Shown: one piece after another, positions 3,621 through 46,144 of the stretch | How the letters are laid out: every line of letters starts with the position of its first letter | How positions within the stretch are numbered: the stretch's first letter is position 1 | From: Escherichia phage NRG-P0074 | Sequence record: PQ480333.1 | DNA: 64,000 nt | Direction: 5' to 3' (one strand) | Made by a program: the position numbers and the translations under genes | The notes under the pieces: model-generated | What the model was told of the DNA's origin: nothing | Databases searched by the model: none | Seen by the model: only the letters and a program-made list of their open reading frames with translations

Positions 3621-3632
3621 TTTCGCAAAACT

Positions 3633-3670
3633 GTTTACACAATTATAGGACTATGTTACAGTAGTCCTAT
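3633..3670 (+). promoter_or_regulatory. early promoter with ATAGGACTA/TAGTCCTAT palindrome
   Basis: GTTTAC 3633-3638; ATAGGACTATGTTACAGTAGTCCTAT 3645-3670; RBS GAGGAG follows. Confidence 0.55.
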
Positions 3671-3690
3671 TAAAACATGAGGAGAATATT

Positions 3691-3996
3691 ATGAAATTAG
3701 GCGAAACCAACCGAATTGGTCTTTTAACAATATTTGCATCACTTTTTTACGCAGCTCTTTCTGTTGCAGTATTACAAAAGGCTTACAGTATGGATGGTGT
3801 TCCTGGTTTTGTATTCTTATCACCATTTTTGCTATTCGTTGGAGCTTTGTTATTATATGCCACGACTAGTTTCGACCATAATGTCTGGGTCAATTATAAA
3901 CGTAAATTGTCCGAAGAAGAACACGCAGAAGCTCGTAAAAAAGCTATTGAATCTACCAATCTAGAAAATTTCATTAAAGAATGTCGAGGAAAATAA
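3691..3996 (+). CDS. hypothetical membrane protein
   Basis: 101 aa; two hydrophobic helices (LLTIFASLFYAALSVAVL, FLSPFLLFVGALLLYA); RBS GAGGAG. Confidence 0.55.
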   Translation: MKLGETNRIGLLTIFASLFYAALSVAVLQKAYSMDGVPGFVFLSPFLLFVGALLLYATTSFDHNVWVNYKRKLSEEEHAEARKKAIESTNLENFIKECRGK

Positions 3997-3997
3997 T

Positions 3998-4684
3998 ATG
4001 AATAGTTCTAAAGTGTTTAATAGTCAAGCTCGTGCAGTAGGTGGTTTTGCTCATGCGATTAAAAACGACCAGATTAAAAACGAGCCTATGTTCTTTAACT
4101 GCGATTTGAATTTTGCTTTTGATAATGGCGGCCCAATTACTCGTAGCTTTATCCAAAATCTTCCTGACGATTGGAAAGACTCGGATGTAGTATTTGATTC
4201 ACGAGTTCACATGCTGATGCCTGGTTGGTACCCTGCTATTCCTGGATATCACCATGACGATGTTCCACGCCCTGATATTCCAACAGGACAACATTTTATT
4301 ACTGCAGGACAACCTGACTATGACAACCCTCGTTACCATTCTGAACATATTCTTGGTCTTGTTAACGCTGATGTGTGTCCTACTCATTTTGCAACAGGAA
4401 CTGCAGAGTTCAGTCAGATTCCTGATGGCGAACTTATCTATCGCCAGTGGCACAAAGAAGTCCTAGAAAAAATCGAAAAAGGCGAACTAGAGAAATGGGA
4501 AGCTCCAGATCGTACTCTTCTTCAGTTTGATTGGCAAACATGGCACACTGGTTCTCGTGCAATTAGTAACGGATGGCGTTGGTTCGGACGTGTATCTCGT
4601 AATACAGACCGAGTTAAAAAGATTACCAATGAAATTCGTGTCAATGCCCAAGTTTATCTGGAATTCCCTATGGAAGGTTGGTAA
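3998..4684 (+). CDS. hypothetical protein
   Basis: 228 aa ORF, coupled to upstream gene; His/Asp-rich segment (GYHHDDV...HSEH). Confidence 0.55.
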   Translation: MNSSKVFNSQARAVGGFAHAIKNDQIKNEPMFFNCDLNFAFDNGGPITRSFIQNLPDDWKDSDVVFDSRVHMLMPGWYPAIPGYHHDDVPRPDIPTGQHFITAGQPDYDNPRYHSEHILGLVNADVCPTHFATGTAEFSQIPDGELIYRQWHKEVLEKIEKGELEKWEAPDRTLLQFDWQTWHTGSRAISNGWRWFGRVSRNTDRVKKITNEIRVNAQVYLEFPMEGW

Positions 4685-5408: not shown

Positions 5409-5856
5409 GAAAAATAAAGTGAAAGAACTATCAGCCGGTATTATTTTCCTTACCGAAGATAAAGAATTATTCATGGGGCGTGTAACTGGTTCTCGTCCTA
5501 AAGGTTCTTTAGCTCATCGGTGGGATATTCCTAAAGGCCGTGTCGAACCTGGCGAATCTCCTATTGAAGCCGCTATTCGTGAATGCGAAGAAGAAACTGG
5601 GTTTACACAATATGACCCTGCCTTCCTGAAAGACCTAGGTGAACATCATTACTCAGACAATAAGAATATTCATCTGTTCTTATATACCATCCCTGTAGAG
5701 CACGAGCAATTCAGAAATAGTGTTTGTAATTCCTATCATACATTCCCAGACGGACGTCAGATTCCTGAATTTGATGCATTCGCTTTAATTAAACCTTCTC
5801 AATGGGAATATGTAATGGGCAAATCATTATATAAGGTGCTCACTACCCTCCTATAA
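5398..5856 (+). CDS. nudE: Nudix hydrolase NudE
   Basis: Nudix box GRVEPGESPIEAAIRECEEETGF; located immediately upstream of e as T4 e.1/nudE. Confidence 0.85.
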   Translation: MMSKKNKVKELSAGIIFLTEDKELFMGRVTGSRPKGSLAHRWDIPKGRVEPGESPIEAAIRECEEETGFTQYDPAFLKDLGEHHYSDNKNIHLFLYTIPVEHEQFRNSVCNSYHTFPDGRQIPEFDAFALIKPSQWEYVMGKSLYKVLTTLL

Positions 5857-14708: not shown

Positions 14709-15185
14709 ATGATTATCAATGAAAACTCTTGGCACTTTAAAATTTATGCCGCGTTCAATAGTACATGGAATCGTCCGAAAACGTTATGTGCTTATTTTTG
14801 GAAAACGTTTCTCCCGGTATTGGCTGCTTCAATTATTGGATTTGCGATTTTAGCAGCAGTCACAATCATTGGCCAGGAAATTTTAACTAAATTCTTTGTT
14901 TTTAGCAGTCTATGGACATTAGTTCTGGCTTCAATTGGTGTAGGCATTTTAATGGTAGCAGTCATGGCTTTTATTGCTACCGGGTTGGTAATTGGTCCGT
15001 CTTGGTTGTTAGACAAATATAACGACAGAAAATATTATAAAGAAATTGAGCTCATTGCACAAAACCAAGAACGAATTAAAAATGGACTTGAGCCTATTGA
15101 ACGTAAGAAATCGATTATCGTTGAATTTTTAAAAGCTCGTAAAGCTAAAGTGTGTCCTACTCTTGAATACAAGCCAGGCAAATGA
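14709..15185 (+). CDS. hypothetical membrane protein
   Basis: Several hydrophobic helices; 158 aa. Confidence 0.5.
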   Translation: MIINENSWHFKIYAAFNSTWNRPKTLCAYFWKTFLPVLAASIIGFAILAAVTIIGQEILTKFFVFSSLWTLVLASIGVGILMVAVMAFIATGLVIGPSWLLDKYNDRKYYKEIELIAQNQERIKNGLEPIERKKSIIVEFLKARKAKVCPTLEYKPGK

Positions 15186-15964
15186 ATTATATCAAATGTT
15201 ATGATGCAATAATTCAACGAGGAAAACTTAGAGGCAGTGATAAGTCTGAGTTGAATTATTATACTGAATCCCATCACATAATCCCTTCATGTATTGGAGG
15301 GAGTGATGACCCGAGTAATAAAGTTTTATTGACTGCCAGGGAACATTTTATCGCTCATTGGTTATTATCAAAAATTCACCCAAACTCTGAAGGATTGATT
15401 TACGCTTACTGGGCGTTCTATAATTTAGGCGAAGATGCTTTAGGACGAAATCTTAAATTAACCTCAAGAGGCTATAAAGACGTAAGGGAAAAGTTTTCAG
15501 AAATTCACTCTAATAGAATGAAAGATATATGGGAATCACAAGAATATCGTGATAAGCGTTCAGCGACCATGAGCCTCCCTGAGATAAAGGCTAAAATGTC
15601 AGATTCTCAAATAGAGGCACAGAATAGACCTGAAGTTAAAGCAAAAATATCTACTGCTATCAAAGAGGCCTTTAAGAGAGATGATGTTAAAGAACGGCAT
15701 TCAAGAGCTGTTAAAAAGGCCCTAGATAATCCAGAAACTAAAAAGAGACAGTCTGAAGCGTCTAAAGCTAGACAACGAACTGGTAAACACTGGGAAGATT
15801 ATGATATGCTTTACGAACTTTGGATTAAATTGAATCGACCTAAGCGTGGGGCTTTCGGAACCTATATTAGTAAAATGGGTTATCCTAAATCAAATTACCA
15901 ACGCTTAATATTACAGTTCATTGAAGATTATGAAAGGAAAGTGAATAATGAAAACGATTGTTAA
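15182..15964 (+). CDS. HNH homing endonuclease (Mob family), free-standing mobile gene
   Basis: HNH motif ESHHIIPSCIGGSDDPSNKVLLTAREHFIAH; position equals T4 mobD between rI and nrdC.x. Confidence 0.8.
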   Translation: MNYIKCYDAIIQRGKLRGSDKSELNYYTESHHIIPSCIGGSDDPSNKVLLTAREHFIAHWLLSKIHPNSEGLIYAYWAFYNLGEDALGRNLKLTSRGYKDVREKFSEIHSNRMKDIWESQEYRDKRSATMSLPEIKAKMSDSQIEAQNRPEVKAKISTAIKEAFKRDDVKERHSRAVKKALDNPETKKRQSEASKARQRTGKHWEDYDMLYELWIKLNRPKRGAFGTYISKMGYPKSNYQRLILQFIEDYERKVNNENDC

Positions 15965-18310: not shown

Positions 18311-18448
18311 GCTTATAGGAAGTTCTGAGGTAACAAAAGCCATAAAGATGAATAATCATATGGCTTACCTCAAAGAAGGACACCAGGAACCTACTGAGGG
18401 CATAGAAATATTTAAAAATAATGGTGTACAAATCAAAGAGGATATGTT

Positions 18449-18736
18449 ATGGATTTTATGCAAAAAATTAAAGCCGCAGTCGAACTGTATGCTCATCGTA
18501 TGGTTAGTTCTACGATGCAATATAGCGAGGAGGTTCGCCAGGACTCTTCCTTGAAAGGAAAAACTAAAGCCTTAATTACCTTAGACCGTCTACAAAAGAA
18601 TGCCCTAGAGTTGTTCCAGTACGACAAGGATGCATATAAGAAAGAACAGGAAGAGAAACTTAAATCTGAAAAATTACAAAAAATACCGAAGTCTGTTTGG
18701 TTCAGTGGAAAAAATACCGAAAAAAGTTTCTTTTAG
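18449..18736 (+). CDS. hypothetical protein
   Basis: 95 aa; RBS AAGAGGA. Confidence 0.5.
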   Translation: MDFMQKIKAAVELYAHRMVSSTMQYSEEVRQDSSLKGKTKALITLDRLQKNALELFQYDKDAYKKEQEEKLKSEKLQKIPKSVWFSGKNTEKSFF

Positions 18737-24033: not shown

Positions 24034-24459
24034 ATGAATATTTCTGACACACGTGGTAAGTGGTTCAAGATTGTTAAAGATGACGAAGAACTCCAAGATA
24101 AGTTTCCTGAATTAAAGAAAGATACAATCATCAAGGTAATTGGTACTACGACCGAAGATGGTTATGGCGACCATGGCATTATTGAAGTGATGTTGAACAC
24201 TGGTGAGAAACTTTGCATCTATGACCGTGATACTTCTCTTTGGTGCTTCTGGGAATCACATTCAATAGATGAACTTGAAGAAATTGATTCGGCTGATATT
24301 TCGGATGTGCTAGGTAGTAAACTTGGTGAATTCGAAGGTGAACGAATTTCTTATGCATTAGCTAAATTAGCCGGACAAGAAAATAACGACGGCTATGAAG
24401 GTAACCTGATGCAAGCAGCCGCAGAATACATTGAATATTTAGAAAGACGTTTAAGTTAA
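24034..24459 (+). CDS. hypothetical acidic protein
   Basis: 141 aa. Confidence 0.5.
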   Translation: MNISDTRGKWFKIVKDDEELQDKFPELKKDTIIKVIGTTTEDGYGDHGIIEVMLNTGEKLCIYDRDTSLWCFWESHSIDELEEIDSADISDVLGSKLGEFEGERISYALAKLAGQENNDGYEGNLMQAAAEYIEYLERRLS

Positions 24460-24489
24460 TAAATACCCTTATCTATTTAAGGTAAGGGT
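24458..24489 (+). promoter_or_regulatory. late-promoter-like box plus hairpin upstream of gene 49
   Basis: AATAAATA 24458-24465; ACCCTTA 24465-24471 pairs with TAAGGGT 24483-24489 just upstream of ATG 24495. Confidence 0.45.
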
Positions 24490-24494
24490 TTATC

Positions 24495-24968
24495 ATGTTA
24501 TTATCAGGCGCAAAATATAAAGAAGAAAAACAAAAATTTTATGATGCACAGAATGGTAAGTGTCCTATTTGCCACCGTGAATTAGACCCTGATGTTCAAG
24601 GTAACCATCTTGACCACGACCACGAATTAAACGGGCCAAAAGCCGGTAGAGTTCGTGGATTACTCTGTAATCTGTGCAACGCAGCAGAAGGTCAAATGAA
24701 GCATAAGTTCAACCGTTCCGGTCTTAAAGGACGTGATGTTGACTACCTCGAATGGCTTGAAGCTCTTCTTGCTTATTTGAAACAAGATTATTCTGATAAT
24801 AATATCCATCCTAATTTTGTTCCAGACAAAACTAAAGAGTTCTCAAGACTAGGTAAAGAGGAAATGATGGCTGAGATGCTTCAAAGAGGATTTGAATATA
24901 ATGAATCTGACACCAAAACACAGTTAATAGCTTCATTTAAGAAGCAACTTAGAAAGAGTTTAAAATGA
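24495..24968 (+). CDS. 49: endonuclease VII (Holliday junction resolvase) gp49
   Basis: MLLSGAKYKEEKQKFYDAQNGKCPICHRELDPDVQGNHLDHDHELNG... matches T4 endo VII as I recall it. Confidence 0.95.
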   Translation: MLLSGAKYKEEKQKFYDAQNGKCPICHRELDPDVQGNHLDHDHELNGPKAGRVRGLLCNLCNAAEGQMKHKFNRSGLKGRDVDYLEWLEALLAYLKQDYSDNNIHPNFVPDKTKEFSRLGKEEMMAEMLQRGFEYNESDTKTQLIASFKKQLRKSLK

Positions 24969-26782
24969 AAATTGAAAAAGAAATTGAAGGATTAATTTAT
25001 AAAACTAATAAAGATCTTTTGAACGAGAATGCTAATAAAGATTCTCGTGTTTTTCCAACTCAACGGGACCTTATGGCTGGTATTGTGTCTAAGCACATTG
25101 CCAAAAATATGGTCCCGTCTTTTATTATGAATGCGCATGAAAGCGGAATCATTCACATGCATGATATTGATTATTCTCCTGCTCTTCCGTTTACCAATTG
25201 CTGTTTAGTCGATTTAAAGGGGATGCTTGAGAATGGATTTAAGCTAGGTAATGCACAGATTGAAACTCCTAAATCAATTGGCGTTGCTACTGCAATTATG
25301 GCACAAATTACCGCACAGGTTGCTTCACACCAGTATGGCGGAACTACATTTGCGAATGTAGATAAAGTACTTTCTCCTTATGTTAAACGCACCTATGCAA
25401 AACATATTGAGGATGCAGAAAAATGGCAAATCGCTGATGCGTTGAATTATGCTCAATCCAAAACAGAAAAAGATGTCTATGACGCATTTCAAGCTTATGA
25501 GTATGAAGTAAATACTCTCTTTAGTTCAAACGGACAAACTCCTTTTGTAACAATTACATTTGGTACGGGAACTGACTGGACTGAACGAATGATTCAGAAA
25601 GCAATTCTGAAAAATCGTATTAAAGGTCTTGGTCGTGATGGGATAACTCCTATTTTCCCTAAGCTTGTTATGTTCATTGAAGAAGGTGTTAATCTTTATA
25701 AAGACGATCCAAACTATGATATTAAACAACTTGCGTTAGAATGTGCAAGCAAAAGAATGTATCCTGACGTTATTTCGGTTAAGAATAATAAAGCTATTAC
25801 CGGTTCTTCAGTTCCAGTTTCTCCAATGGGCTGCCGTAGTTTCTTGAGTGTATGGAAAGATTCAACCGGTAATGAAATTCTTGATGGACGTAATAATCTC
25901 GGTGTTGTAACACTGAATCTTCCTCGCATCGCGTTAGATTCTTATATTGGAACACAGTTCAATGAACAGAAATTTGTTGAATTATTCAATGAACGAATGG
26001 ATCTGTGTTTTGAAGCCTTGATGTGTAGAATTAGTTCCTTAAAAGGAGTTAAAGCAACTGTTGCTCCTATTCTTTACCAAGAAGGTGCATTCGGGGTTCG
26101 TCTTAAACCTGATGACGATATAATTGAGTTATTTAAAAACGGTAGAAGTTCAGTGTCCCTAGGATACATTGGTATTCACGAATTGAATATTCTTGTCGGT
26201 CGTGATATTGGACAGGAAATTTTAACTAAAATGAATGCTCGTCTTAAGCAGTGGACCGAAAGAACCGGTTTTGCTTTTAGTTTATATTCTACTCCTGCCG
26301 AAAACTTGTGTTATCGTTTCTGTAAACTCGACACAGAAAAATATGGAAGTATAAAGGATGTCACTGATAAAGGCTGGTACACTAATAGTTTCCATGTTTC
26401 AGTAGAAGAAAATATTACTCCGTTTGAAAAGATTTCTCGTGAAGCGCCATATCATTTCATAGCGACCGGCGGTCATATTTCTTATGTTGAACTTCCTGAT
26501 ATGAAAAATAACTTAAAAGGACTTGAGGCTGTATGGGATTATGCTGCACAACATTTAGATTATTTTGGTGTTAATATGCCAGTAGATAAATGTTTTACAT
26601 GCGGAAGTACCCATGAAATGACTCCTACTGAAAACGGATTTGTTTGTTCAGTTTGTGGAGAAACTGATCCTAAAAAGATGAACACAATAAGAAGAACGTG
26701 TGGTTATTTGGGAAATCCGAACGAGCGCGGATTTAATCTAGGCAAAAATAAAGAAATCATGCATAGGGTTAAACACCAATGA
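24965..26782 (+). CDS. nrdD: anaerobic ribonucleoside-triphosphate reductase NrdD
   Basis: 605 aa; C-terminal Zn ribbon and glycyl radical motif RRTCGYLG. Confidence 0.95.
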   Translation: MKIEKEIEGLIYKTNKDLLNENANKDSRVFPTQRDLMAGIVSKHIAKNMVPSFIMNAHESGIIHMHDIDYSPALPFTNCCLVDLKGMLENGFKLGNAQIETPKSIGVATAIMAQITAQVASHQYGGTTFANVDKVLSPYVKRTYAKHIEDAEKWQIADALNYAQSKTEKDVYDAFQAYEYEVNTLFSSNGQTPFVTITFGTGTDWTERMIQKAILKNRIKGLGRDGITPIFPKLVMFIEEGVNLYKDDPNYDIKQLALECASKRMYPDVISVKNNKAITGSSVPVSPMGCRSFLSVWKDSTGNEILDGRNNLGVVTLNLPRIALDSYIGTQFNEQKFVELFNERMDLCFEALMCRISSLKGVKATVAPILYQEGAFGVRLKPDDDIIELFKNGRSSVSLGYIGIHELNILVGRDIGQEILTKMNARLKQWTERTGFAFSLYSTPAENLCYRFCKLDTEKYGSIKDVTDKGWYTNSFHVSVEENITPFEKISREAPYHFIATGGHISYVELPDMKNNLKGLEAVWDYAAQHLDYFGVNMPVDKCFTCGSTHEMTPTENGFVCSVCGETDPKKMNTIRRTCGYLGNPNERGFNLGKNKEIMHRVKHQ

Positions 26783-27249
26783 ATTATGATAGATTTTATC
26801 CTTGCGGTTTTGTGAATGGCCCTGGTTGCAGGGTCGTTCTTTTCGTTACAGGGTGTTTGCATAAATGCGAAGGGTGTTATAATAAATCAACATGGAATGC
26901 TAGAAATGGTATTCCATTCACTGGTGAAACACTAGAACAATTAATTGAATGTTTGAATAATGATTATATAGAAGGATTAACTATAACTGGAGGAGACCCT
27001 CTCTATCCTGATAACAGAGATGTGATTCACTCTGTGGTTCAAACTATTAAAAATCTTTATCCCAATAAAAGCATTTGGTTGTGGACAGGATATAAGTTTG
27101 AAGATATTAAACAGCTAGAAATGCTTAAATATGTTGATGTTATTATTGATGGGAAGTATGAGAAAAATCTTCCGACTAAAAAGCTGTGGCGAGGATCAGA
27201 TAATCAGCGACTTTGGTCAAATACCGATGGGGTGTGGAAACATGATTAA
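26779..27249 (+). CDS. nrdG: anaerobic RNR activating enzyme NrdG (radical SAM)
   Basis: CxxxCxxC cluster motif GCLHKCEGCYN; ATGA-coupled to nrdD. Confidence 0.9.
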   Translation: MNYDRFYPCGFVNGPGCRVVLFVTGCLHKCEGCYNKSTWNARNGIPFTGETLEQLIECLNNDYIEGLTITGGDPLYPDNRDVIHSVVQTIKNLYPNKSIWLWTGYKFEDIKQLEMLKYVDVIIDGKYEKNLPTKKLWRGSDNQRLWSNTDGVWKHD

Positions 27250-27359
27250 ATTGAATTACATTATGGATACTATAAATGATATGATTTTTCGTTTTGGTCC
27301 AGAATTTTATTCGCAATATAGTTTAGTGCTTATCAATGCTTAGTTAATTAAGGGTAAAT

Positions 27360-27572
27360 ATGTATAAATTTCGTAAAGGTTTAGCTGATTTTCTTACAAC
27401 TGTAACATTCTTTTTGTTTATGGCAGTTGGAGCTATTTTTCTTATTCCTTTTACTGCTGTATTTTTCGTGATTAGTTTAATTTCTCCGGAAAAGGGTTTA
27501 TCCTCCAGCGAATTCAATGAACGTTTGGACAAAATTACTAATAAACTGAATTCTGTTCTTGGCAAGGAATAA
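27360..27572 (+). CDS. hypothetical small membrane protein
   Basis: Two hydrophobic helices; RBS AAGGG; preferred over overlapping minus-strand ORF 27344-27583. Confidence 0.45.
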   Translation: MYKFRKGLADFLTTVTFFLFMAVGAIFLIPFTAVFFVISLISPEKGLSSSEFNERLDKITNKLNSVLGKE

Positions 27573-27574
27573 TT

Positions 27575-27883
27575 GTGGAACACAACAAGATTGAAATTTA
27601 TGGCATCCCTGAAGAAGTAGGACGTTGTCCAGGATGTTATACTGTTACAAAACTTTTAAAGGAGCTCAATGCTCCTTATACATTTTATAAAGTCCTCACT
27701 AATAATGGTAAGATTGAATATGACCGTCCTTTAATCGTATCTCTTGCTAAACGTGCAGGATTCACTTCACTTAATATTCGTTATCCTGTCATATTTTTAA
27801 ATGATAAGAAACAAAAGAATATTGCAGAGTTTAAAAAGTCCTTGATTTCATTAGGATACGACTCTGATATCATAGAAGATTGA
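27575..27883 (+). CDS. nrdH: glutaredoxin-like protein NrdH
   Basis: CPGC redox motif near N-terminus; 102 aa; GTG start. Confidence 0.75.
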   Translation: MEHNKIEIYGIPEEVGRCPGCYTVTKLLKELNAPYTFYKVLTNNGKIEYDRPLIVSLAKRAGFTSLNIRYPVIFLNDKKQKNIAEFKKSLISLGYDSDIIED

Positions 27884-31881: not shown

Positions 31882-31903
31882 CTTTATAAACGGATGATAG
31901 AAT
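31878..31903 (+). promoter_or_regulatory. middle (MotA-dependent) promoter upstream of gene 47
   Basis: MotA-box-like TTTGCTTTA (31878-31886), 11-nt spacer, -10 TAGAAT (31898-31903). Confidence 0.5.
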
Positions 31904-31926
31904 GAATTAACTAATGAGGAAATAAT

Positions 31927-32946
31927 ATGAAAATTTTGCACTTAGGCGACTTCCATATCGGAGTCAAACAAGACGACCCATGGGTCCAAGATATTCAACG
32001 TGATGGTATTCGTCAAGCAATTGAATACTCTAAGAAACACGGGATTAAAACTTGGATTCAGTACGGTGATTGGTTTGACGTCCGTAAAGCAATAACACAT
32101 CGTACAATGGAATTCAATCGTGAAATCGTTGATATGATTTCTAAAGCAGGCATTCACGTTCATGTCACGATAGGAAACCATGACATGGCGTTTAAGAATA
32201 CAATAACACCTAACACTGTTTCTGAATTGTTGACTCAATTTGAAAACTTTACTATTTACGAGCATCCAACTACTGTAGATTTTGACGGATGTCTTATTGA
32301 TATCATTCCATGGATGTGTGAAGAAAATACAGGTGAAATCTTAGAGCACATCAAGACTTCTTCTGCAGCGTATTGTGTTGGGCACTGGGAACTGAATGGT
32401 TTTTATTTCTATAAAGGAATGAAGTCTCATGGGCTTGAACCTGATTTCTTAAAGACCTATAAACAAGTCTGGTCCGGCCACTTCCACACAATCTCTGAAG
32501 CTGCTAACGTCAAATATATTGGGACACCATGGACCCTTACTGCAGGCGATGAGAACGACCCACGCGGATTCTGGGTATTTGACACTGATGTTGAACGTAT
32601 GGAATTTATTCCTAATGAAACAACATGGCATCGACGAATCACTTATCCGTTTAAAGGCAAAATCAATTATTCTGATTATACTAATCTAGCCGTACGTGTT
32701 ATAGTATCAGAAATTGATTCAGAGTTGACTAAGTTTGAATCTGAACTTGAAAAAGTAGTTCACTCTCTTCGTATGGTTTCTAAAGTTGATAATAGTGTTG
32801 AATCTGATGACGACCAGGAAATCGAGATTAAATCACTTCAAGATATCATTAAAGAATATATTGACGCGATTCCAGATATCTCAGACGAAGACAGAGAAGC
32901 GCTGGTCAAATATTCCAACGAACTTTATATTGAGGCAACACAATGA
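31927..32946 (+). CDS. 47: recombination endonuclease subunit gp47 (Mre11/SbcD-like)
   Basis: Phosphoesterase motifs LHLGDFH, GDWFD, GNHD, GHFH; 339 aa. Confidence 0.93.
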   Translation: MKILHLGDFHIGVKQDDPWVQDIQRDGIRQAIEYSKKHGIKTWIQYGDWFDVRKAITHRTMEFNREIVDMISKAGIHVHVTIGNHDMAFKNTITPNTVSELLTQFENFTIYEHPTTVDFDGCLIDIIPWMCEENTGEILEHIKTSSAAYCVGHWELNGFYFYKGMKSHGLEPDFLKTYKQVWSGHFHTISEAANVKYIGTPWTLTAGDENDPRGFWVFDTDVERMEFIPNETTWHRRITYPFKGKINYSDYTNLAVRVIVSEIDSELTKFESELEKVVHSLRMVSKVDNSVESDDDQEIEIKSLQDIIKEYIDAIPDISDEDREALVKYSNELYIEATQ

Positions 32947-33206
32947 CTTTAGATGAATTTAACAATGCTGGACTCAGGCTTGAAGTTGAAATGGACGTTA
33001 AAGATGATGATGGATTCGAGAACACTATCAAGTATTGGATTGAGCCATTACGCGTTGAAGGCAATGAAGTTAAAGCAGTTCATGTCTGCACCGACTGGGC
33101 TGTATCCTTTAACTTCAACATTTTAGATAATGACACACCTAAATCATTGCGAGATATGGCTGTATCTTGTATTAAGGATGCATACTGTGAAGTTTTCGAC
33201 ATTTGA
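32943..33206 (+). CDS. hypothetical acidic protein
   Basis: ATGA-coupled to 47. Confidence 0.5.
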   Translation: MTLDEFNNAGLRLEVEMDVKDDDGFENTIKYWIEPLRVEGNEVKAVHVCTDWAVSFNFNILDNDTPKSLRDMAVSCIKDAYCEVFDI

Positions 33207-33393
33207 CATTAATGATGAATTCATAGCAAACATTGATTATACCGAAGAAGATTCTAGATATGTTGGAATAATTTATATTACATCAAAAACAGCACAAGGC
33301 GTTGTTTGCATGGCTGAATTTGATGAATACTTTTTAGATTATGATGATATGATAGAATGGTCTAAAAGATACATTAAAAGGAATCTTTTGTGA
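33178..33393 (+). CDS. hypothetical protein
   Basis: Overlapping ORF; start uncertain (ATG 33178 or GTG 33187). Confidence 0.3.
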   Translation: MHTVKFSTFDINDEFIANIDYTEEDSRYVGIIYITSKTAQGVVCMAEFDEYFLDYDDMIEWSKRYIKRNLL

Positions 33394-34244
33394 AGAATTT
33401 TAAACTTGATATTAATGACGAATTTTTAATAAAGGAATTAGTTGAAAAATTAGTGTTGAGCGAAGAAGACGCCAAGTCTTACATTAATTTTATTTCTATG
33501 AATTCAACTGTTAAAACTCCGGGTAAAACGGAAGCACATCACGTGCTTCCTAAATCAATATTTCCTGAATATTTAAAATCTACATGGAATTTAGTTAATT
33601 TAAGTCATTTTAATCATTTCAAAGCACATTTCTTATTAGCAAAAGGTAAAAATGGAAAAATGCTAAATGCTTTAAATAGAATGATGTCAGGAAAAACATA
33701 TAAAAATTTATCTTTAGCCGAAGTTGATTTAATAGCTGCTGAATATAGTTTTATAAGACAAGATGTAAGTGACACAATATCAAAAAGGCTTCAACAATAT
33801 TATTCAAATCCGCAAAATAGAAATGCTGCTAGAGAAAGGGCATTAAAATATTTTTCAGTAGCAAAAAATAGGAAAGATAACAAAGAAAGATTAAATAATT
33901 TTAAAACAAAACAAAAAATTTCAATGGCTTCAAGGGAATGGTTTAATAACGAAGAAAATAAAATTAAACACCAAAAGGCTGTTCGTGCTGCTTTATCAAA
34001 ACCTGAATATAAAATAGCTATATCAAATTCAGTAGCTGCTAGTTGGAAAAATCCGGAGATTAGAAAAGCTCATATAGCATCTCGACGAAAAGGCTATCAT
34101 TGGGATAATAAAGATAAATTGTATGAATTGTGGATATCATATAATCGTCCTAAACATGTGATGTTTAGGAAAATGTTAGTTAAGAATGGATATCCAATAG
34201 AGGCTTCATTACAGGCTTTAGTTAAAGAATTTTCTTCATTGTGA
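33390..34244 (+). CDS. HNH homing endonuclease (Mob-like), free-standing mobile gene
   Basis: HNH motif TEAHHVLPKS...NLVNLSHFNHFKAH; AT-rich (Lys/Asn-rich) relative to neighbours; inserted between 47 and 46. Confidence 0.75.
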   Translation: MKNFKLDINDEFLIKELVEKLVLSEEDAKSYINFISMNSTVKTPGKTEAHHVLPKSIFPEYLKSTWNLVNLSHFNHFKAHFLLAKGKNGKMLNALNRMMSGKTYKNLSLAEVDLIAAEYSFIRQDVSDTISKRLQQYYSNPQNRNAARERALKYFSVAKNRKDNKERLNNFKTKQKISMASREWFNNEENKIKHQKAVRAALSKPEYKIAISNSVAASWKNPEIRKAHIASRRKGYHWDNKDKLYELWISYNRPKHVMFRKMLVKNGYPIEASLQALVKEFSSL

Positions 34245-34259
34245 ACAATTGGATACAAA

Positions 34260-35948
34260 ATGAAATCATTTAAACTTAATAGAGTAAAATATAAAAATAT
34301 AATGTCAGTTGGTCAAAATGGAGTTGACATTCAATTAGATAAGGTTCAAAAAACTCTTATTACTGGACGAAATGGCGGTGGTAAATCTACGATGTTAGAA
34401 GCCATTACTTTCGGACTTTTCGGTAAACCATTTCGTGATGTTAAGAAAGGACAAATCATTAATAGCACGAACAAGAAAGAGCTCTTAGTTGAGCTTTGGA
34501 TGGAATTCGATGATAAAAAATACTTCATTAGACGTGGTCAAAAGCCCAATATTTTCGAAATCTCCGTTGACGGTGTTCGTCTCGATGAATCTGCCAGCAG
34601 TCGTGACTTCCAAGAAGAATTTGAACGTAGCATCGGAATGTCATACGCGTCTTTTAAACAAATCGTTGTGCTTGGGACGGCAGGGTATACCCCTTTCATG
34701 GCTCTTAGCACCCCTGCTCGTAGAAAACTTGTCGAAGACCTTTTAGAAGTCGGCACACTCGCTGAAATGGATAAAATCAATAAGTCTCAAGTTCGAGAAC
34801 TTAATTCCCAGGGACAAGTTCTCGATGCCAAGAAAGATGGTGTTATCCAACAAATTAAGATTTATAACGAGAATATCGAACGTCAAAAGAAATTATCTGG
34901 TGATAATGTAGCGCGTCTACAGAATATGTATGACGACCTAGCCAAAGAAGCTCGTTCATTAAAAGCAGAAATCGAAGAAGCTAATGAGCGACTACTTAAT
35001 ATCGTTCTTGACGAAGACCCTACTGAGGCATTCAACAAGATCGGACAAGAAGCATTCTTGATTAAATCTAAAATTGACTCATATAACAAAGTTATTAAGA
35101 TGTATCATGATGGCGGTACATGTCCTACTTGTGCATCACAGTTGCACCAGGGTGATCCTATTGTCTCTAAGATTACCGATAAGCTTCACGAATGTAATCA
35201 CTCATTCGAGCAACTTACATGTCACAGAGATAATCTGAGTGTCCTAGTGGACGAATATAGAGCTAATGTTAAGACTAAACAGGACCTTGCATCTGATATT
35301 CGTACCAAGAAACAAGCAATGATTGCCACTATTGATAAAGCTAAGAAAGTTAAAGCTGCAATAGAACAAGCCTCGGCGGAATTTATCGACCATGCCGATG
35401 AGATAGCTTTGCTTCAAAAAGAACTTGATAAAATCATTAAAACAAAATCGGATATCGTTCTTGAAAAATACCATCGCGGTATTATCACAGATATGTTAAA
35501 AGATTCTGGTATTAAAGGTGCTATCATTAAAAAATATGTGCCTCTGTTCAACAAGCAGATTAACCATTATCTTAAAATCATGGAAGCTGATTATGTGTTT
35601 TCTATTGACGAAGAATTCAATGAATCTATAAAATCACGTGGACGTGAAGAATTCAGTTATGCTTCGTTTAGTCAAGGTGAAAAGGCACGTATCGATATCG
35701 CATTGTTGTTTACATGGCGAGATATCGCTGAAAAGGTCTCTGGCGTTAGAATCAATACATTAATTATGGACGAAGTCATGGATTCCGCGACTGATTCTGA
35801 AGGTATTAAAGCTATTTCAACAATTCTTAACTCTCTAACCGATGCAAACGTGTTTATAATTAGTCACAGAGACCATGACCCACAAGCTTATGGACAACAT
35901 CTTCAAATGAGCAAAGTTGGACGATTTACTGTAATGAAAGCCTCTTAA
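34260..35948 (+). CDS. 46: recombination endonuclease subunit gp46 (Rad50/SbcC-like ATPase)
   Basis: Walker A GRNGGGKST, long coiled coil, signature SFSQGEKARIDIALLF, Walker B IMDEVMD. Confidence 0.93.
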   Translation: MKSFKLNRVKYKNIMSVGQNGVDIQLDKVQKTLITGRNGGGKSTMLEAITFGLFGKPFRDVKKGQIINSTNKKELLVELWMEFDDKKYFIRRGQKPNIFEISVDGVRLDESASSRDFQEEFERSIGMSYASFKQIVVLGTAGYTPFMALSTPARRKLVEDLLEVGTLAEMDKINKSQVRELNSQGQVLDAKKDGVIQQIKIYNENIERQKKLSGDNVARLQNMYDDLAKEARSLKAEIEEANERLLNIVLDEDPTEAFNKIGQEAFLIKSKIDSYNKVIKMYHDGGTCPTCASQLHQGDPIVSKITDKLHECNHSFEQLTCHRDNLSVLVDEYRANVKTKQDLASDIRTKKQAMIATIDKAKKVKAAIEQASAEFIDHADEIALLQKELDKIIKTKSDIVLEKYHRGIITDMLKDSGIKGAIIKKYVPLFNKQINHYLKIMEADYVFSIDEEFNESIKSRGREEFSYASFSQGEKARIDIALLFTWRDIAEKVSGVRINTLIMDEVMDSATDSEGIKAISTILNSLTDANVFIISHRDHDPQAYGQHLQMSKVGRFTVMKAS

Positions 35949-36661
35949 TGAGGCTTATATTTACAATTATCGAAATGCCAACGATGCATATTAGCAGGGA
36001 TCCCTATTTTATCGCAATGAGGACATTTAATTTTCTTGTCCTCTTTTTTCTTTCTGTTAGGATTTGATTTACAGAATTTTATATGTGGCTTTAACGCCGA
36101 TAACTTAGTAGTTAAGCCACAAAACGGGCAAGAATCTTCTTTCCAAATTTTCGTGGCCATGGTTTTAATTATTTTATCTTTTGTTTCTTGATCAAGTTTT
36201 ACTATTTTAGGCGTTGGACCTTGTTTACAATTATCAAAATGCCAACGTCGCATGTTTCCTTCAGTTCCAGTTAAACCACAATGTGGACAGGTAATCTTTG
36301 GTTTATTTTTTGCAGACTCGGACATTTTCTTACGGGTTTCAGCAGTGAATTCTTTATTCTTTTGAACTTCTTGATTCTTACGTCGAAGCCATCCAAATAA
36401 TTTGTTTTTGCTTCTATCTGCTTTAGGAGATGATATGGTCATCATACGAGCGGCATATATTAAAGAGGCATTATCTGGATGGATTTTTACCAACAGTTGA
36501 TGTGCCAAATAATGTTCTTCCGGTGTTAAGTCTACTAAGTTTAAAGCATCATCACTTCCACCTAAACATTGTGGTATAATGTGATGACGTTCTGTATAAC
36601 CATCTAAACTTCTTGATTTAGCATTGGTGATAAGCTTTTCGTATATTGAGTTATAATTCAT
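35945..36661 (-). CDS. HNH homing endonuclease with three C-terminal zinc-finger repeats, free-standing mobile gene
   Basis: Minus strand; HNH motif ERHHIIPQCLGGSDD...EEHYLAH; repeats CPHCG...WHFDNCK; convergent with gene 46 (4-bp overlap). Confidence 0.8.
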   Translation of the reverse strand: MNYNSIYEKLITNAKSRSLDGYTERHHIIPQCLGGSDDALNLVDLTPEEHYLAHQLLVKIHPDNASLIYAARMMTISSPKADRSKNKLFGWLRRKNQEVQKNKEFTAETRKKMSESAKNKPKITCPHCGLTGTEGNMRRWHFDNCKQGPTPKIVKLDQETKDKIIKTMATKIWKEDSCPFCGLTTKLSALKPHIKFCKSNPNRKKKEDKKIKCPHCDKIGIPANMHRWHFDNCKYKPH

Positions 36662-36738
36662 TTACTAAATCCTTATTTGATACAGCAACAGATAAATTGA
36701 TAAACCTATTTATATTGCTTTAATCACGGAGATTTATA

Positions 36739-36930
36739 ATGGCGGAGTATTCAACCGGACAACATCTTCTCGTTGTCCCTGAAATTAAAAGATATGTTTT
36801 GACCAATACGTTTTCAGGTGAAGAACATATTGTTACTGAACAAATGCTCAAATCTGCTTTTAAAGATGAGTATAATAAAATAATGTCTAATCGCAATTCC
36901 GCATGGACAGTTACCGACTTCTACGAATAA
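36739..36930 (+). CDS. hypothetical protein
   Basis: 63 aa. Confidence 0.5.
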   Translation: MAEYSTGQHLLVVPEIKRYVLTNTFSGEEHIVTEQMLKSAFKDEYNKIMSNRNSAWTVTDFYE

Positions 36931-36942
36931 GAGAGAAATAAT

Positions 36943-37359
36943 ATGTTTACTACTGCTAAAGGTTTCACTGCTGCTGATCTGAAAGTTACTTCTATCCGTA
37001 CTGACGCTAACCCACATAACCATAATCGTGTTCGTAAAGCATGGGTCCTGCATTGTGATGACGCAAGTGCTAAAAAACTCCAATCTTTGCCACAAGAAAC
37101 TCGTTTTATGATTTATGGTTTTATTGATAACGATGTATCTGATATGTGGATTCATCTGATGCGTAAGCACTATAAAGATTCTATTGAAGCTGGCGGAAAA
37201 ATCGTTCTTGATAAAGACGGTTCTGAGCGTCTGGAAGATTTCTATTGTGTTGATGCCGACGAACAACTAATTGCAGCTGGCGAAATTGTTGCTTCTAAAA
37301 TTCCAGAATATATTGAATCACTGCCTGAAGCTATTAAAAAGCAGATGGTTGCTGCATAA
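36943..37359 (+). CDS. rpbA: RNA polymerase binding protein RpbA
   Basis: Position between 46 and 45 as in T4; sequence MFTTAKGFTAADLKVTSIRTDANPHNHNRVRKAWVLHCDD fits my recollection of RpbA. Confidence 0.7.
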   Translation: MFTTAKGFTAADLKVTSIRTDANPHNHNRVRKAWVLHCDDASAKKLQSLPQETRFMIYGFIDNDVSDMWIHLMRKHYKDSIEAGGKIVLDKDGSERLEDFYCVDADEQLIAAGEIVASKIPEYIESLPEAIKKQMVAA

Positions 37360-37401
37360 TAAATTTGTTATAAACTTTGAATTGTCTTGAAAGGAAATAA
37401 A

Positions 37402-43712: not shown

Positions 43713-45398
43713 ATGAAAAAAGCTGTTATTCTTGGTGCTGGACTGGCAACTCGTTTATATCCAATAACGCATCATATTCCTAAGGTGCTTGTTAACTATA
43801 AACAAGACACTATTCTGAGCAATTTGTATACAATTTATTCTGACCTTGGCGCAGATGAAATTATTGTAGTAGTTCATTCAAAATTTGCTGAAACTGTTCG
43901 AGCTTATTGTGAGCAAGAAGGGTTCAATGTGACTATTCGTACAGTTGATGAAGCGTATGGTTCTGCTTATGCTCTTGCTAAATTACACAAAGATTTAGAC
44001 GGCCATAATGTAATTGTTAACTGGTGTGATATTATTCCGGATTTTGGTTCATGGTCTTGGAATGTTAACGCAATCTATGTTAAGGGTGACGAATGTCGAT
44101 ATAATTTCGACGGTGAAAATATCACTAACGTAGGTTCAACAGGTGGTAATGTTGTAGGAATTTATCAGTTCAAAGACTGGGAATTCTATATGGGTTCTAC
44201 TGATGAGGAAATTCATGAATACTGCAAAGGACGTGATTTCGTAGAATTCCTTTACGGCAGCGCATTCAATAAATCAGAGCTTATGAATCTAATTGATTTA
44301 GGTGATATGCCTAAACTTGAAAAAGCTCATGAAGTTCGTGAACTTAATCGTAGTTTTAATGCAGTTGAAATTGGTGAAGAAACTGTAACTAAATTCGCAT
44401 TAACCGAACAGGGACGAGCTCTTCAGAAAGATGAGATTTCATGGTATCTTAAAGTGAAATCAGATTCAGTTCCTCAGTTAGTTTCTGTTAATGAAAATAA
44501 CTTTGAAATGGAACGCATTAAAGGTAAGCCGGCATTTGAATATATTAAATCCAAATCAAGTCTTGCTCGTCCACAAATTGTTGATGCAATTTTAGATGCA
44601 CTGAAATTCAGCACAGACACTTATTTTGTAAGTCCTGAAACTGTTCGTCGTGATTTCACTAAAGAATTCTATACGAAAGTTATTGATCGTTGTGAAAGCA
44701 TTCAACCATTGATTGATTCATTTGGTAAAATCACACATGTGAACTACACTAAGATTGGACGTCTGAAGCCAATGCTGAAACAAGCTTTAGAACATCTTAT
44801 TCGTTATCATAACCGTTCTCAGGGACAGTACTCTGTTATTCATGGTGACCCGAACTTCAGTAATACTATGATTACTGATAACGGCGAAGTTAAGTTTATC
44901 GACCCTCGTGGATATTTTGGCGAAACCAAGATTTACGGGCCAAAATTGTACGATGAAGCTAAAGTGCTTTATGCTGTTTCAGGTTATGATGAATTCAACG
45001 CTAATCCGACCTGGGGACAGTTTACTATTGATGAAACAACTTGTAATGTGACTATTAACATCAATCCATTAGTTTACAAATATGGAAAGATGAGTTCGTT
45101 TAACGAGTATCATCATTTGGCAGTGGCAATTATCTGGATTGCATTAGGTGGTTATTTCAAGAATAATCCACTTAAAGCGGTAGCCGCATATTATAAAGGT
45201 ATGGAACTTCTGACTAAGCAATTACGTAACATGGGCCGTGTACTTCAGGACGGCTCTATTAGTTATGACGTAGCAGAACCTGTAACGGCTACTCTGATTA
45301 CAAAAAATCCTGGTAAATGGGTACTAACTGATAAAGAAACTGGTGTTTCCTATCGTCCAATCGGTGGCGATATCACTCATCAATGGGAACGAATTTGA
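43713..45398 (+). CDS. bifunctional sugar-1-phosphate nucleotidyltransferase / sugar kinase (APH-MtnK-like)
   Basis: N-term RmlA/GalU-like ILGAGLATRLYPIT...PK; C-term protein-kinase-like catalytic loop VIHGDPNFSN and metal-binding IDPRGYFG. Confidence 0.7.
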   Translation: MKKAVILGAGLATRLYPITHHIPKVLVNYKQDTILSNLYTIYSDLGADEIIVVVHSKFAETVRAYCEQEGFNVTIRTVDEAYGSAYALAKLHKDLDGHNVIVNWCDIIPDFGSWSWNVNAIYVKGDECRYNFDGENITNVGSTGGNVVGIYQFKDWEFYMGSTDEEIHEYCKGRDFVEFLYGSAFNKSELMNLIDLGDMPKLEKAHEVRELNRSFNAVEIGEETVTKFALTEQGRALQKDEISWYLKVKSDSVPQLVSVNENNFEMERIKGKPAFEYIKSKSSLARPQIVDAILDALKFSTDTYFVSPETVRRDFTKEFYTKVIDRCESIQPLIDSFGKITHVNYTKIGRLKPMLKQALEHLIRYHNRSQGQYSVIHGDPNFSNTMITDNGEVKFIDPRGYFGETKIYGPKLYDEAKVLYAVSGYDEFNANPTWGQFTIDETTCNVTININPLVYKYGKMSSFNEYHHLAVAIIWIALGGYFKNNPLKAVAAYYKGMELLTKQLRNMGRVLQDGSISYDVAEPVTATLITKNPGKWVLTDKETGVSYRPIGGDITHQWERI

Positions 45399-46144
45399 TA
45401 CATTATCTCTACAAAACTACTAATCTTATAAACGGTAAAGTTTATTTAGGAATGCACTCGGCTGAAGAAGCCGAGCCTTTAGATTTATATAAAGGTTCTG
45501 GTAAATTATATAAAAAGGCTGAAAGGAAATACGGGAAGGAAAATTTTCTTAAAGAAATCATTTCCTACCATAGCTCGAGAGAAGAATTAAAAATAGCTGA
45601 AAAGGCTCTAATAACATTAGACATAGTTAAAGACCCAAATTATTACAATCTTAAAACTGGTGGCGAAGGCGGTTCTGACGGGTTATCCCAAAGGTCCAAG
45701 GATAAAATTTCTAAGGCAAATAAAGGACGTTTAGTTGGTGATAAAAACCCAAGATGGGGTAAAACTTTGTCAGCTGAATCTATAGCTAGGGGTAAAGAAA
45801 AGCACAGGAGGTATGGTAAACCTGCATTACATGGTCTAAAGATTAATGTAGATGGCAAATATTATGAATCCTGTCGGGAAGCGGCTAAAGATTTGGGTAT
45901 ATCTTCTGCCACGATTCAAAAGAGAGTAAAATCGCCTAAATATCTTAATTATCGATATCAGGACGAAAGCAAAAATGCTCACAAGTCTCAAAAATTTGTT
46001 AAAATAAACGAAAATTACTATGAATCTCTTAGGATAGCTGAAAAGAAAACGGGTATTCCTAGAAAGCGTATAGCTGATAATATTAAAAATTCTATTGAAG
46101 GATATTGCTATGAAACCATTACATCTTTGCGTGGACGTCGATGA
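45383..46144 (+). CDS. GIY-YIG homing endonuclease (Seg-like), free-standing mobile gene
   Basis: N-terminal GIY-YIG module HYLYKTTNLINGKVYLGMH; Lys-rich C-terminal DNA-binding region; overlaps both neighbours. Confidence 0.7.
   Translation: MGTNLIHYLYKTTNLINGKVYLGMHSAEEAEPLDLYKGSGKLYKKAERKYGKENFLKEIISYHSSREELKIAEKALITLDIVKDPNYYNLKTGGEGGSDGLSQRSKDKISKANKGRLVGDKNPRWGKTLSAESIARGKEKHRRYGKPALHGLKINVDGKYYESCREAAKDLGISSATIQKRVKSPKYLNYRYQDESKNAHKSQKFVKINENYYESLRIAEKKTGIPRKRIADNIKNSIEGYCYETITSLRGRR

Follow-up and report, generated by a model that had tools for sequence, protein, structure and literature searches.

Much of the mosaicism and partial genetic isolation seen in T-even phages is believed to be driven by free-standing homing endonucleases; to our knowledge only a few of these (MobE and SegA–G) have been studied. 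SegF and SegG of phage T4 are GIY-YIG enzymes that act between T4 and T2, within one genus, in intronless homing and marker exclusion. Here we analyse a stretch of 64,000 nucleotides (nt) from Escherichia phage NRG-P0074 (record PQ480333.1; hereafter the window), in which two open reading frames (ORFs), HNH-1 and HNH-2, stand at the two ends of gene 46. Both are very probably free-standing homing endonuclease genes (HEGs) of the T4 Mob type, with independent histories and without gene 46 having been moved as their cargo. The likeness to SegF and SegG is that a free-standing HEG would cut a conserved neighbouring gene in a related phage, with co-conversion of short flanks; the locus differs from them in that the enzyme is of the HNH type and the natural product crosses a genus boundary (~76% background identity).

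T4 MobE is a free-standing HNH homing endonuclease encoded between nrdA and nrdB (Wilson and Edgell 2009, PMC2790892); it nicks nt 122–126 of the neighbouring nrdB and drives co-conversion, with tracts that resolve in the first 189 nt (PMC2790892). HNH-2 resembles MobE in its N-terminal HNH domain, in its C-terminal CCHC finger and in lying between genes, next to a conserved one. The MobE gene is promoterless, shares the strand of its neighbours and contains an internal terminator, whereas HNH-2 occupies the opposite strand with a putative late promoter of its own, overlaps the gene 46 stop, carries three fingers and sits at another insertion site. For HNH-1 the parallel is one of position: MobE acts ~120 nt inside its neighbour gene with flank co-conversion, and the HNH-1 tract described below ends at nt 73–125 of gene 46. 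This is a close correspondence, in which the HNH-1 cut site itself is a predicted one. With MobD, HNH-1 shares an HNH domain, helical repeats and a W…LW…P…F…GYP C-terminal domain; unlike MobD, it is found at the junction of 46.1 and 46, where it has appropriated the translation start that gene 46 uses in T4.

Essential genes bracketed by HEGs have been described as HEG islands, whose cargo is proposed to move along with the endonuclease genes (Barth, Dunham and Seed 2023, PMC10448857). Such a bracket exists in the window, gene 46 lying between HNH-1 and HNH-2, and here too HEGs mark the boundaries of genetic exchange between phages. The identity above 90% that island cargo keeps across divergent phages is not seen; only ~125 nt of gene 46 moved. 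Of the features that mark a Mob-type HEG, a stand-alone gene present or absent among close relatives is found at this locus, and co-conversion of flanking markers is found for HNH-1, with no tract for HNH-2 within Mosigvirus.

The two ORFs as members of the HNH family

The genes concerned and their conserved motifs are as follows.

33390–34244, plus strand: HNH-1, MobD-like free-standing HNH HEG, 284 residues, GTG start (PHROG 655, E 3e-45)
33537–33629, plus strand: catalytic motif of HNH-1, residues 50–80, HH…P…N…H…H
34260–35948, plus strand: gene 46, Rad50/SbcC-like ATPase (PHROG 77, E 1e-191)
35945–36661, minus strand: HNH-2, MobE-like free-standing HNH HEG, 238 residues (PHROG 655, E 6e-67)
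36500–36592, minus strand: catalytic motif of HNH-2, residues 24–54, E-x-HH…P…N…H…H
35963–36289, minus strand: zinc fingers of HNH-2, three tandem CCHC ββα units, residues 125–233

Pfam and NCBIfam scans of the two proteins returned no nuclease family above threshold, the only matches being sub-threshold ones to zinc-ribbon and HNH_5/IscB models, and the catalytic residues were therefore tested directly. In HNH-1, H50, H51, P54, N67, H76 and H80 are invariant across 41 sequences (relatives at 21–41% identity), and in HNH-2 the same holds for E24, H26, H27, P30, N41, H50 and H54 across 49 sequences (relatives at 36–81%). The original prediction, made from the letters of the sequence, had named loss of conserved catalytic residues on alignment as the outcome that would overturn it; with the motif residues invariant in both families, its HNH reading is not refuted.

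Profile and structure comparisons agree with this placement. The two family profiles are homologous to one another over the HNH domain (hhalign probability 99.8%, E 9e-30), and the motif in the HNH-2 profile lines up with those of McrA (6ghc, E 0.005), Cas8-HNH and IscB. AF2 models of HNH-1 (pLDDT 94.6) and HNH-2 (pLDDT 91.6) each place a ββα unit at the motif, with strands 47–51 and 68–72 and helix 73–84 in the former and strands 24–27 and 42–45 and helix 47–60 in the latter. Foldseek matches HNH-2 locally to the Cas8-HNH domain, with a root-mean-square deviation of 1.4 Å over 42 residues and an E-value that is not significant. Single-sequence searches of the PDB gave nothing for HNH-1 and weak matches to the LapB zinc finger and McrA for HNH-2, and a PDB search with the HNH-1 family profile found no solved relative. 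Among phage proteins the matches are plentiful: the HNH-1 model retrieves from BFVD many entries named MobD-like, HNHc, NUMOD3 or T4 MobC, MobE is among the BFVD matches to Mob-type proteins, and PHROG 655, 'homing endonuclease', is matched by all three Mob-like ORFs of the window (the third is described below). An exhaustive search of representatives yielded 1005 matches to HNH-1, for which a word-indexed search had returned six relatives; 2481 homologues were found for HNH-2. Identical copies are annotated 'homing endonuclease' in GenBank records.

HNH-1 continues beyond its nuclease domain into a tail of helical NUMOD3-like repeats and a MobD-type C-terminal domain, with the W…LW…P…F…GYP pattern in common with MobD. 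Its closest T4 paralogue is MobD (30.5% identity over 83%; annotated mobD in RB7, RB55 and RB59). That of HNH-2 is MobE, at 34% identity over 99% of the protein (T4 139.7–140.4 kb), and the equivalent matches in other Tequatroviruses adjoin nrdA. These comparisons support placing both proteins, as yet uncharacterised, in the known Mob family of HNH homing endonucleases. That they are HNH homing endonucleases is what had been proposed, and the slips of naming corrected below leave this unchanged. Their endonuclease activity, target sites and timing of expression are here predictions from sequence.

The zinc fingers of HNH-2 had been described as three CPHCG...WHFDNCK repeats. There are indeed three CxxC…H…C units (C125/C128/H141/C145, C178/C181/H193/C197 and C213/C216/H229/C233), of which fingers 1 and 3 fit that pattern, while finger 2 reads CPFCG…HIKFCK. 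Each is modelled as β-β-α by AF2, with weak Foldseek matches to CTCF finger arrays (E 0.035). Across the family of 49 sequences the last finger (C213, C216, H229, C233) is the sole invariant one, and in many relatives NUMOD3-type repeats (PF07460) take the place of fingers 1 and 2. The fingers are the presumed DNA-binding module.

A Tequatrovirus tract around HNH-1

By genome comparison the window is that of an RB69-like Mosigvirus. We compared it with RB69, a20, F2 and SQ17 (Mosigvirus) and with T4, T2 and ECML-134 (Tequatrovirus), and searched a database of 50,697 phage records, in which RB69-like records number ~154. The interval 31900–37400 (5.5 kb) is 99.5% identical over its full length to Escherichia phage BEU50 (Mosigvirus); ~150 RB69-like phages match it at 90–99% with gaps, and ~490 Tequatroviruses at 60–80%. 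The window differs from BEU50 at 28 places in the 5.5 kb, which rules out that it is BEU50 itself and makes the source phage a sibling isolate outside the collection searched; 13 of the 28 cluster at the right-hand crossover described here (34343–34424). Gene order is 47, 46.2, 46.1, HNH-1, 46, HNH-2, 45.2, rpbA and 45, all on the plus strand except HNH-2. The original prediction had the coordinates, strand and GTG start of the HNH gene before gene 46 right, and misnamed the gene upstream of it as 47.x: this is 46.1, preceded by 46.2. Its statement that genes 46 and 47 are flanked by HEGs holds for gene 46; gene 47 lies upstream of both.

31927–32946, plus strand: gene 47, Mre11/SbcD-like nuclease subunit (PHROG 100, E 2e-135; Pfam Metallophos)
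32943–33206, plus strand: gene 46.2, T4_Y03C family (PF25721, E 3e-42)
33178–33393, plus strand: gene 46.1, DUF5487 (PF17589, E 4e-49), start set by homology to the T4 annotation
~33093–34384: putative Tequatrovirus-derived gene-conversion tract, ~1.29 kb, centred on HNH-1, from informative-site analysis

Alignment reveals two changes of type. The sequence is RB69-type (95–100%) to ~33026, gene 47 included (95–100% RB69 identity in 100-nt windows), T2-type (98.7–100%) from ~33127 to 34387 and then RB69-type again, the tract flanks being 97–100% RB69-type. At informative sites, the left changeover falls between 33092 (last RB69-type base) and 33102 (first T2-type base), and the right one between 34369 (last T2-type base) and 34385 (first RB69-type base). 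These bounds place the crossovers in a 9-nt identity block (GACTGGGCT, in 46.2) and a 15-nt one (AAATGGCGGTGGTAA), the latter being the Walker-A loop codons of gp46. Between them lie the end of 46.2 (its final ~110 nt are Tequatrovirus-type), the whole of a Tequatrovirus-type 46.1, HNH-1 and codons 1–37 of gene 46 (the first ~110–125 nt), with flanks of ~300 nt and ~125–140 nt beyond HNH-1. The window's 46.1 has no nucleotide similarity to RB69 46.1 (56–63% in alignment) and is 97–100% identical to T4/T2-type 46.1 in 517 records, 71 of which also carry HNH-1. No other stretch of the 64 kb is closer to ECML-134 than to RB69; background identity to ECML-134 averages 76%.

Among the 50,697 records, that of BEU50 alone has the chimeric left junction, the next best match reaching 85.7%. 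On the gene 46 side BEU50 differs: RB69-type sequence resumes ~40 nt earlier, after 34331, and three isolated T2-type bases follow at 34406, 34412 and 34424. Variable, patchy ends of this kind are as expected of break repair with heteroduplex correction, and would make nt ~70–125 of gene 46 the recombination-prone zone. HNH-1 protein is 98–99% identical to genes of T2-like Tequatroviruses, and its DNA is 98.8% identical across the genus boundary, which indicates a recent transfer; the gene is present in ~70 Tequatrovirus records and one Mosigvirus record (BEU50). Read base by base, the ~1.29-kb tract shows HNH-1 to have come to this Mosigvirus, in all likelihood, from a T2-like Tequatrovirus.

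In both ORFs an N-terminal HNH (ββα-metal) nuclease domain is followed by a modular DNA-binding tail, and the mechanism we propose is one of homing. During mixed infection with a related phage that lacks the HEG, the enzyme would nick or cut that phage's allele near the border of gene 46; the break would then be resected, in T4-type phages largely by gp46/47, and repair from the HEG-carrying genome would copy the HEG with short flanking DNA. The genus-crossing break may have lain near the codons for the Walker-A loop of gp46, the protein that itself resects breaks of this type.

HNH-1 also bears on how gene 46 is started. Its start overlaps the TGA stop of 46.1 as GTGA (translational coupling), and it ends 15 nt before the gene 46 ATG (34260). 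In HEG-less T4, gene 46 opens with GTGAAGAATTTTAAACTT (MKNFKL; T4 locus 3806–3823), overlapping the 46.1 stop codon. In HEG-carrying genomes the same 18 nt, together with the 30 nt upstream, begin HNH-1 (MKNFKLDIND…; window 33390–33407), and the gene 46 start resumes 870 nt downstream as ATGAAATCATTTAAACTT (MKSFKL; window 34260–34277). HNH-1 therefore takes the ribosome-binding site, GTG start and first six codons that gene 46 owns in HEG-less T4, and its cassette provides a replacement gene 46 start. Seated on this region, HNH-1 lacks its own promoter and ribosome-binding site and depends on the 46.1/46 translational coupling; it can be placed with several T4 seg and mob genes in the class called 'promoterless cassette' (PMC2988022). 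The insert is flanked by the 9-bp repeat TTTAAACTT, and deletion between the two copies would yield exactly the T4 sequence. The T4 allele may be the scar of a precise HEG loss between the repeats, or the HEG may have been inserted after codon 6. RB69 and the HEG-carrying Tequatroviruses have the gene 46 start ATGAAATCATTTAAA, and the RB69-type start is presumably an HNH-1-immune allele. F2 and SQ17 carry a different Mob-like gene (45% identical) at the HNH-1 site, where it replaces 46.1 and has its own short T4-like gene 46 flank, so the site has been invaded at least twice in Mosigviruses.

The HNH-2 cassette at the far end of gene 46

The second ORF arrives as part of a larger replacement.

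35938–36743: HNH-2 cassette, 806 bp replacing 67 bp of RB69
35938–35956: hairpin AAGCCTC-TTAAT-GAGGCTT, 7-bp stem and 5-nt loop, spanning both overlapping stops
36707–36714, minus strand: T4-type late-promoter motif TATAAATA, 46 nt upstream of the HNH-2 ATG, inside the cassette
36739–36930, plus strand: gene 45.2 (PF17470, E 1e-28)

HNH-2 converges on gene 46, and the 4-bp overlap that had been predicted is the TTAA shared by the two stop codons (35945–35948). It lies, as proposed, inside GCCTCTTAATGAGGC (35940–35954); the element, described as a palindrome, is a hairpin whose stem of 7 bp encloses a 5-nt loop. The cassette changes the end of gp46 from TVS* to KAS* (the last three codons) and the start of gp45.2 from MEYST to MAEYST. 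Gene 46 is consequently chimeric, with codons 1–37 T2-type, an RB69-type body and its last three codons rewritten by the cassette. In 100-nt windows, the body (34385–35937) is 94–100% RB69-type and 64–86% Tequatrovirus-type; the whole gene matches RB69 at 96.8% (BLAST).

The cassette is 96.8–100% identical in 12 other records (one at 75% coverage only), and the carriers that were checked are Mosigvirus or RB69-like. More distant orthologues of HNH-2 (45–68% protein identity) occupy the same place in the same orientation in Tequatrovirus teqhad, Dhakavirus IME281, Pseudotevenvirus Cronuts, Slopekvirus phiKp_10 and the unclassified phage Roth77, where they overlap or abut the gene 46 end by −5 to +23 nt. 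Convergent orthologues in four other named genera and in Roth77 mark HNH-2 as an old lineage tied to one site.

Its signals are conserved with it. Of the four copies of TATAAATA in the 64 kb, the one before HNH-2 is the only copy on the minus strand, and the motif is kept 41–44 nt upstream of the orthologues in teqhad, IME281 and Roth77. The hairpin at 35938–35956 (dG −13.9/−12.7 kcal/mol, z −4.6/−4.2) was not called by a simple terminator scan. It is not improbable by itself, such hairpins being common in this genome: the window has 75 perfect ones (7-bp stem, 3–8-nt loop) against 35.5±6.8 in shuffles, an approximately twofold excess. IME281 has an identical stem, Roth77 one in which two base pairs have changed in a compensatory way (AGACCTC/GAGGTCT), and teqhad a different hairpin at this position; this recurrence in diverged orthologous loci indicates more than chance. 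The hairpin is likely a bidirectional terminator or a 3′-end stabiliser. HNH-2 would be expressed late, in a gp55-dependent manner, with its transcripts terminated or stabilised at the hairpin, and termination there would also limit antisense transcription into gene 46.

The cassette also removes a TATAAT-loop hairpin found in the 46/45.2 spacer of HEG-less RB69 and T4. These read GATGTGGT-TATAAT-GACCACATC (RB69 locus 3724–3746) and TAGAG-TATAAT-CTCTA (T4 locus ~5513–5532), and we take them to resemble the 'promoter-early stem-loop' cassettes of T4-type phages.

Comparison of relatives, proposed with the original prediction as a check on it, bears out that the pair is polymorphic. RB69 lacks HNH-1 and HNH-2, a20 has HNH-2 only, F2 has the different Mob-like gene (shared with SQ17) plus HNH-2, and among the searched records BEU50 alone has both. 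Since the body of gene 46 is RB69-type and the donors and distributions differ, the pair is not one mobile unit; HNH-1 and HNH-2 are two independent invasions of the two ends of gene 46. A literature search for a described HEG at gene 46 gave nothing relevant.

Other features of the window and rival explanations

Two further HEGs lie elsewhere in the window.

15182–15964, plus strand: third Mob-type HNH HEG, MobD-like (PHROG 655, E 1e-55)
45383–46144, plus strand: Seg-like GIY-YIG free-standing HEG (TIGR01453, E 4e-17; PHROG 314, E 3e-43)

When the whole window is compared with RB69 by BLAST, exactly four blocks of 0.7–1.15 kb prove specific to the window (15174–15943, 33102–34252, 35938–36743 and 45395–46118), each with one named HEG ORF, so the predicted count of four free-standing HEGs is right. 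The gene at 15182, a 770-bp insertion relative to RB69 with a below-threshold match to Pfam HNH (PF01844, E 0.007), adjoins nrdC.11, next to the position of T4 mobD. The latter is a predicted HNH HEG between nrdC.11 and mobD.1 whose activity was not determined (PMC2988022). The gene at 45383 is a 724-bp insertion whose start overlaps the end of a 561-residue ORF by 16 nt. Its translation has an N-terminal YLY…YLG motif, and it scores 63 bits against TIGR01453 (cut-off 56), with I-TevI_DNA-bd (E 4e-8), NUMOD1 and NUMOD3 matches; the Pfam SegE GIY-YIG model stays below threshold (E 0.002).

Several other differences from RB69 were observed. The 561-residue ORF is a single frame at 43713–45398 where RB69 annotates two (RB69ORF053c and 052c; a sugar-nucleotidyltransferase-like region), and 176 bp at 18312–18487 have no RB69 counterpart at megablast sensitivity. 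A 7.2-kb RB69 segment (69230–76403), containing e.3–e.8, frd.3, tRNA-Arg, tRNA-Met, tRNA.2–4 and several ORFs, is missing from the window, which has no tRNA genes. The junction, at 2349–2379, where the BLAST pieces overlap by 31 nt, sits in a hairpin (GATAGGACTA-TGTTATAG-TAGTCCTATC) whose sequence recurs at each end of the RB69 segment, which points to recombination between repeated intergenic stem-loops as the source of a deletion or insertion. The gp49–nrdD–nrdG region (24457–27879) is ~91% identical to ECML-134, against the 76% background, and not closer to it than to RB69; it is either an unusually conserved stretch or an older exchange. In T4 this region is host to I-TevII and mobC (PMC2988022).

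Against this background the readings of the gene 46 locus can be weighed. The patch around HNH-1 might stem from ordinary homologous recombination in a mixed infection, with HNH-1 a passive passenger and no endonuclease cut to initiate it. Its crossovers do lie in short identity blocks (9 and 15 nt) that any recombination could use, and cleavage of RB69-type DNA is uncertain given an RB69 gene 46 start like that of the HEG-carrying allele. Yet this is the sole Tequatrovirus-closer patch in 64 kb, it is centred on a HEG with flanks of only ~300 and ~125–140 nt, all four large insertions relative to RB69 are HEGs, and in F2 and SQ17 the same site holds another, distinct Mob-like HEG bordered by a short T4-like stretch of its own; we consider a cut-free origin distinctly improbable. 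Still harder to credit, to the point of being barely tenable, is that the two HEGs form one composite HEG island mobilising gene 46 between phages. An essential gene flanked on both sides by HEGs is the arrangement by which such islands were defined (PMC10448857), and both ends of gene 46 have been rewritten. The body of gene 46, being RB69-type, did not travel with HNH-1, and the idea of gene 46 as cargo is rejected on that ground; moreover the distributions differ (~70 Tequatrovirus records and one Mosigvirus for HNH-1, 13 records at 97–100% for HNH-2), only one record has both HEGs, and among the 50,697 records we found no unrelated phages sharing the whole HNH-1–46–HNH-2 block at >90% identity.

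A number of observations weigh against the view that both ORFs are Mob-type HEGs that invaded independently. No Pfam HNH model scores above its gathering threshold for either protein (HNH_5 is best for HNH-2, E 0.07; none for HNH-1), and neither model found a PDB match at E ≤ 0.001 in whole-chain Foldseek searches; the Pfam scores reflect a divergent Mob subfamily rather than missing residues, and an extended multi-domain shape probably defeats global Foldseek matching. The T2 copy of HNH-1 is frameshifted into two ORFs (T2 locus 3406–4020 and 4001–4258), showing that members of this lineage do decay, the gene being intact at 855 bp in ECML-134 and the window. The RB69 gene 46 start (ATGAAATCA…) resembles the HEG-carrying rather than the T4 HEG-less allele, so RB69-type DNA is possibly a poor HNH-1 substrate, with which one Mosigvirus record in ~154 agrees. 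For HNH-2, a divergent flanking tract was looked for by alignment within Mosigvirus and none was seen, so that recent mobility of this gene is conjectural. Some of these points would suit one or both genes being defunct or domesticated relics, their ORFs intact and their own spread no longer promoted, kept perhaps for excluding competing phages or for regulation through the zinc fingers: the T2 frameshift, HNH-2 flanks without a conversion signature in Mosigvirus, and MobE, the only experimentally studied Mob enzyme, which could not be shown to cut in vitro (PMC2790892). We think this unlikely, if less so than the two preceding alternatives, because both window ORFs are full length with every invariant residue, the 98.8% DNA identity of HNH-1 across genera speaks for recent transfer, conservation of the HNH-2 promoter and hairpin suggests that expression has been maintained, and exclusion of competitors would use the same cleavage mechanism. 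Independent invasion by two Mob-type HEGs therefore stays our preferred reading.

The locus is a clear and ordinary example of HEG spread, and no new kind of system. What it adds is a tract, resolved to the base, that documents transfer from Tequatrovirus to Mosigvirus and ends differently in the sibling BEU50, a gene 46 start captured by HNH-1, and the conserved promoter and hairpin of the HNH-2 cassette. Two Mob-type enzymes, so far uncharacterised, have their insertion sites defined at an essential gene; a natural conversion tract, with end-points differing between two sibling isolates, narrows the search for the HNH-1 cut site to nt ~70–125 of gene 46, and the HNH-2 cassette, with a conserved promoter and terminator of its own, is testable as a unit. 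More tentatively, and in our judgement a good deal short of probable, the locus may record both a HEG that crossed from Tequatrovirus to Mosigvirus and, in the HEG-less T4 allele, the scar of HEG loss. If both are true, the two ends of this essential recombination gene have been remodelled again and again throughout the Tevenvirinae as HEGs were gained and lost.

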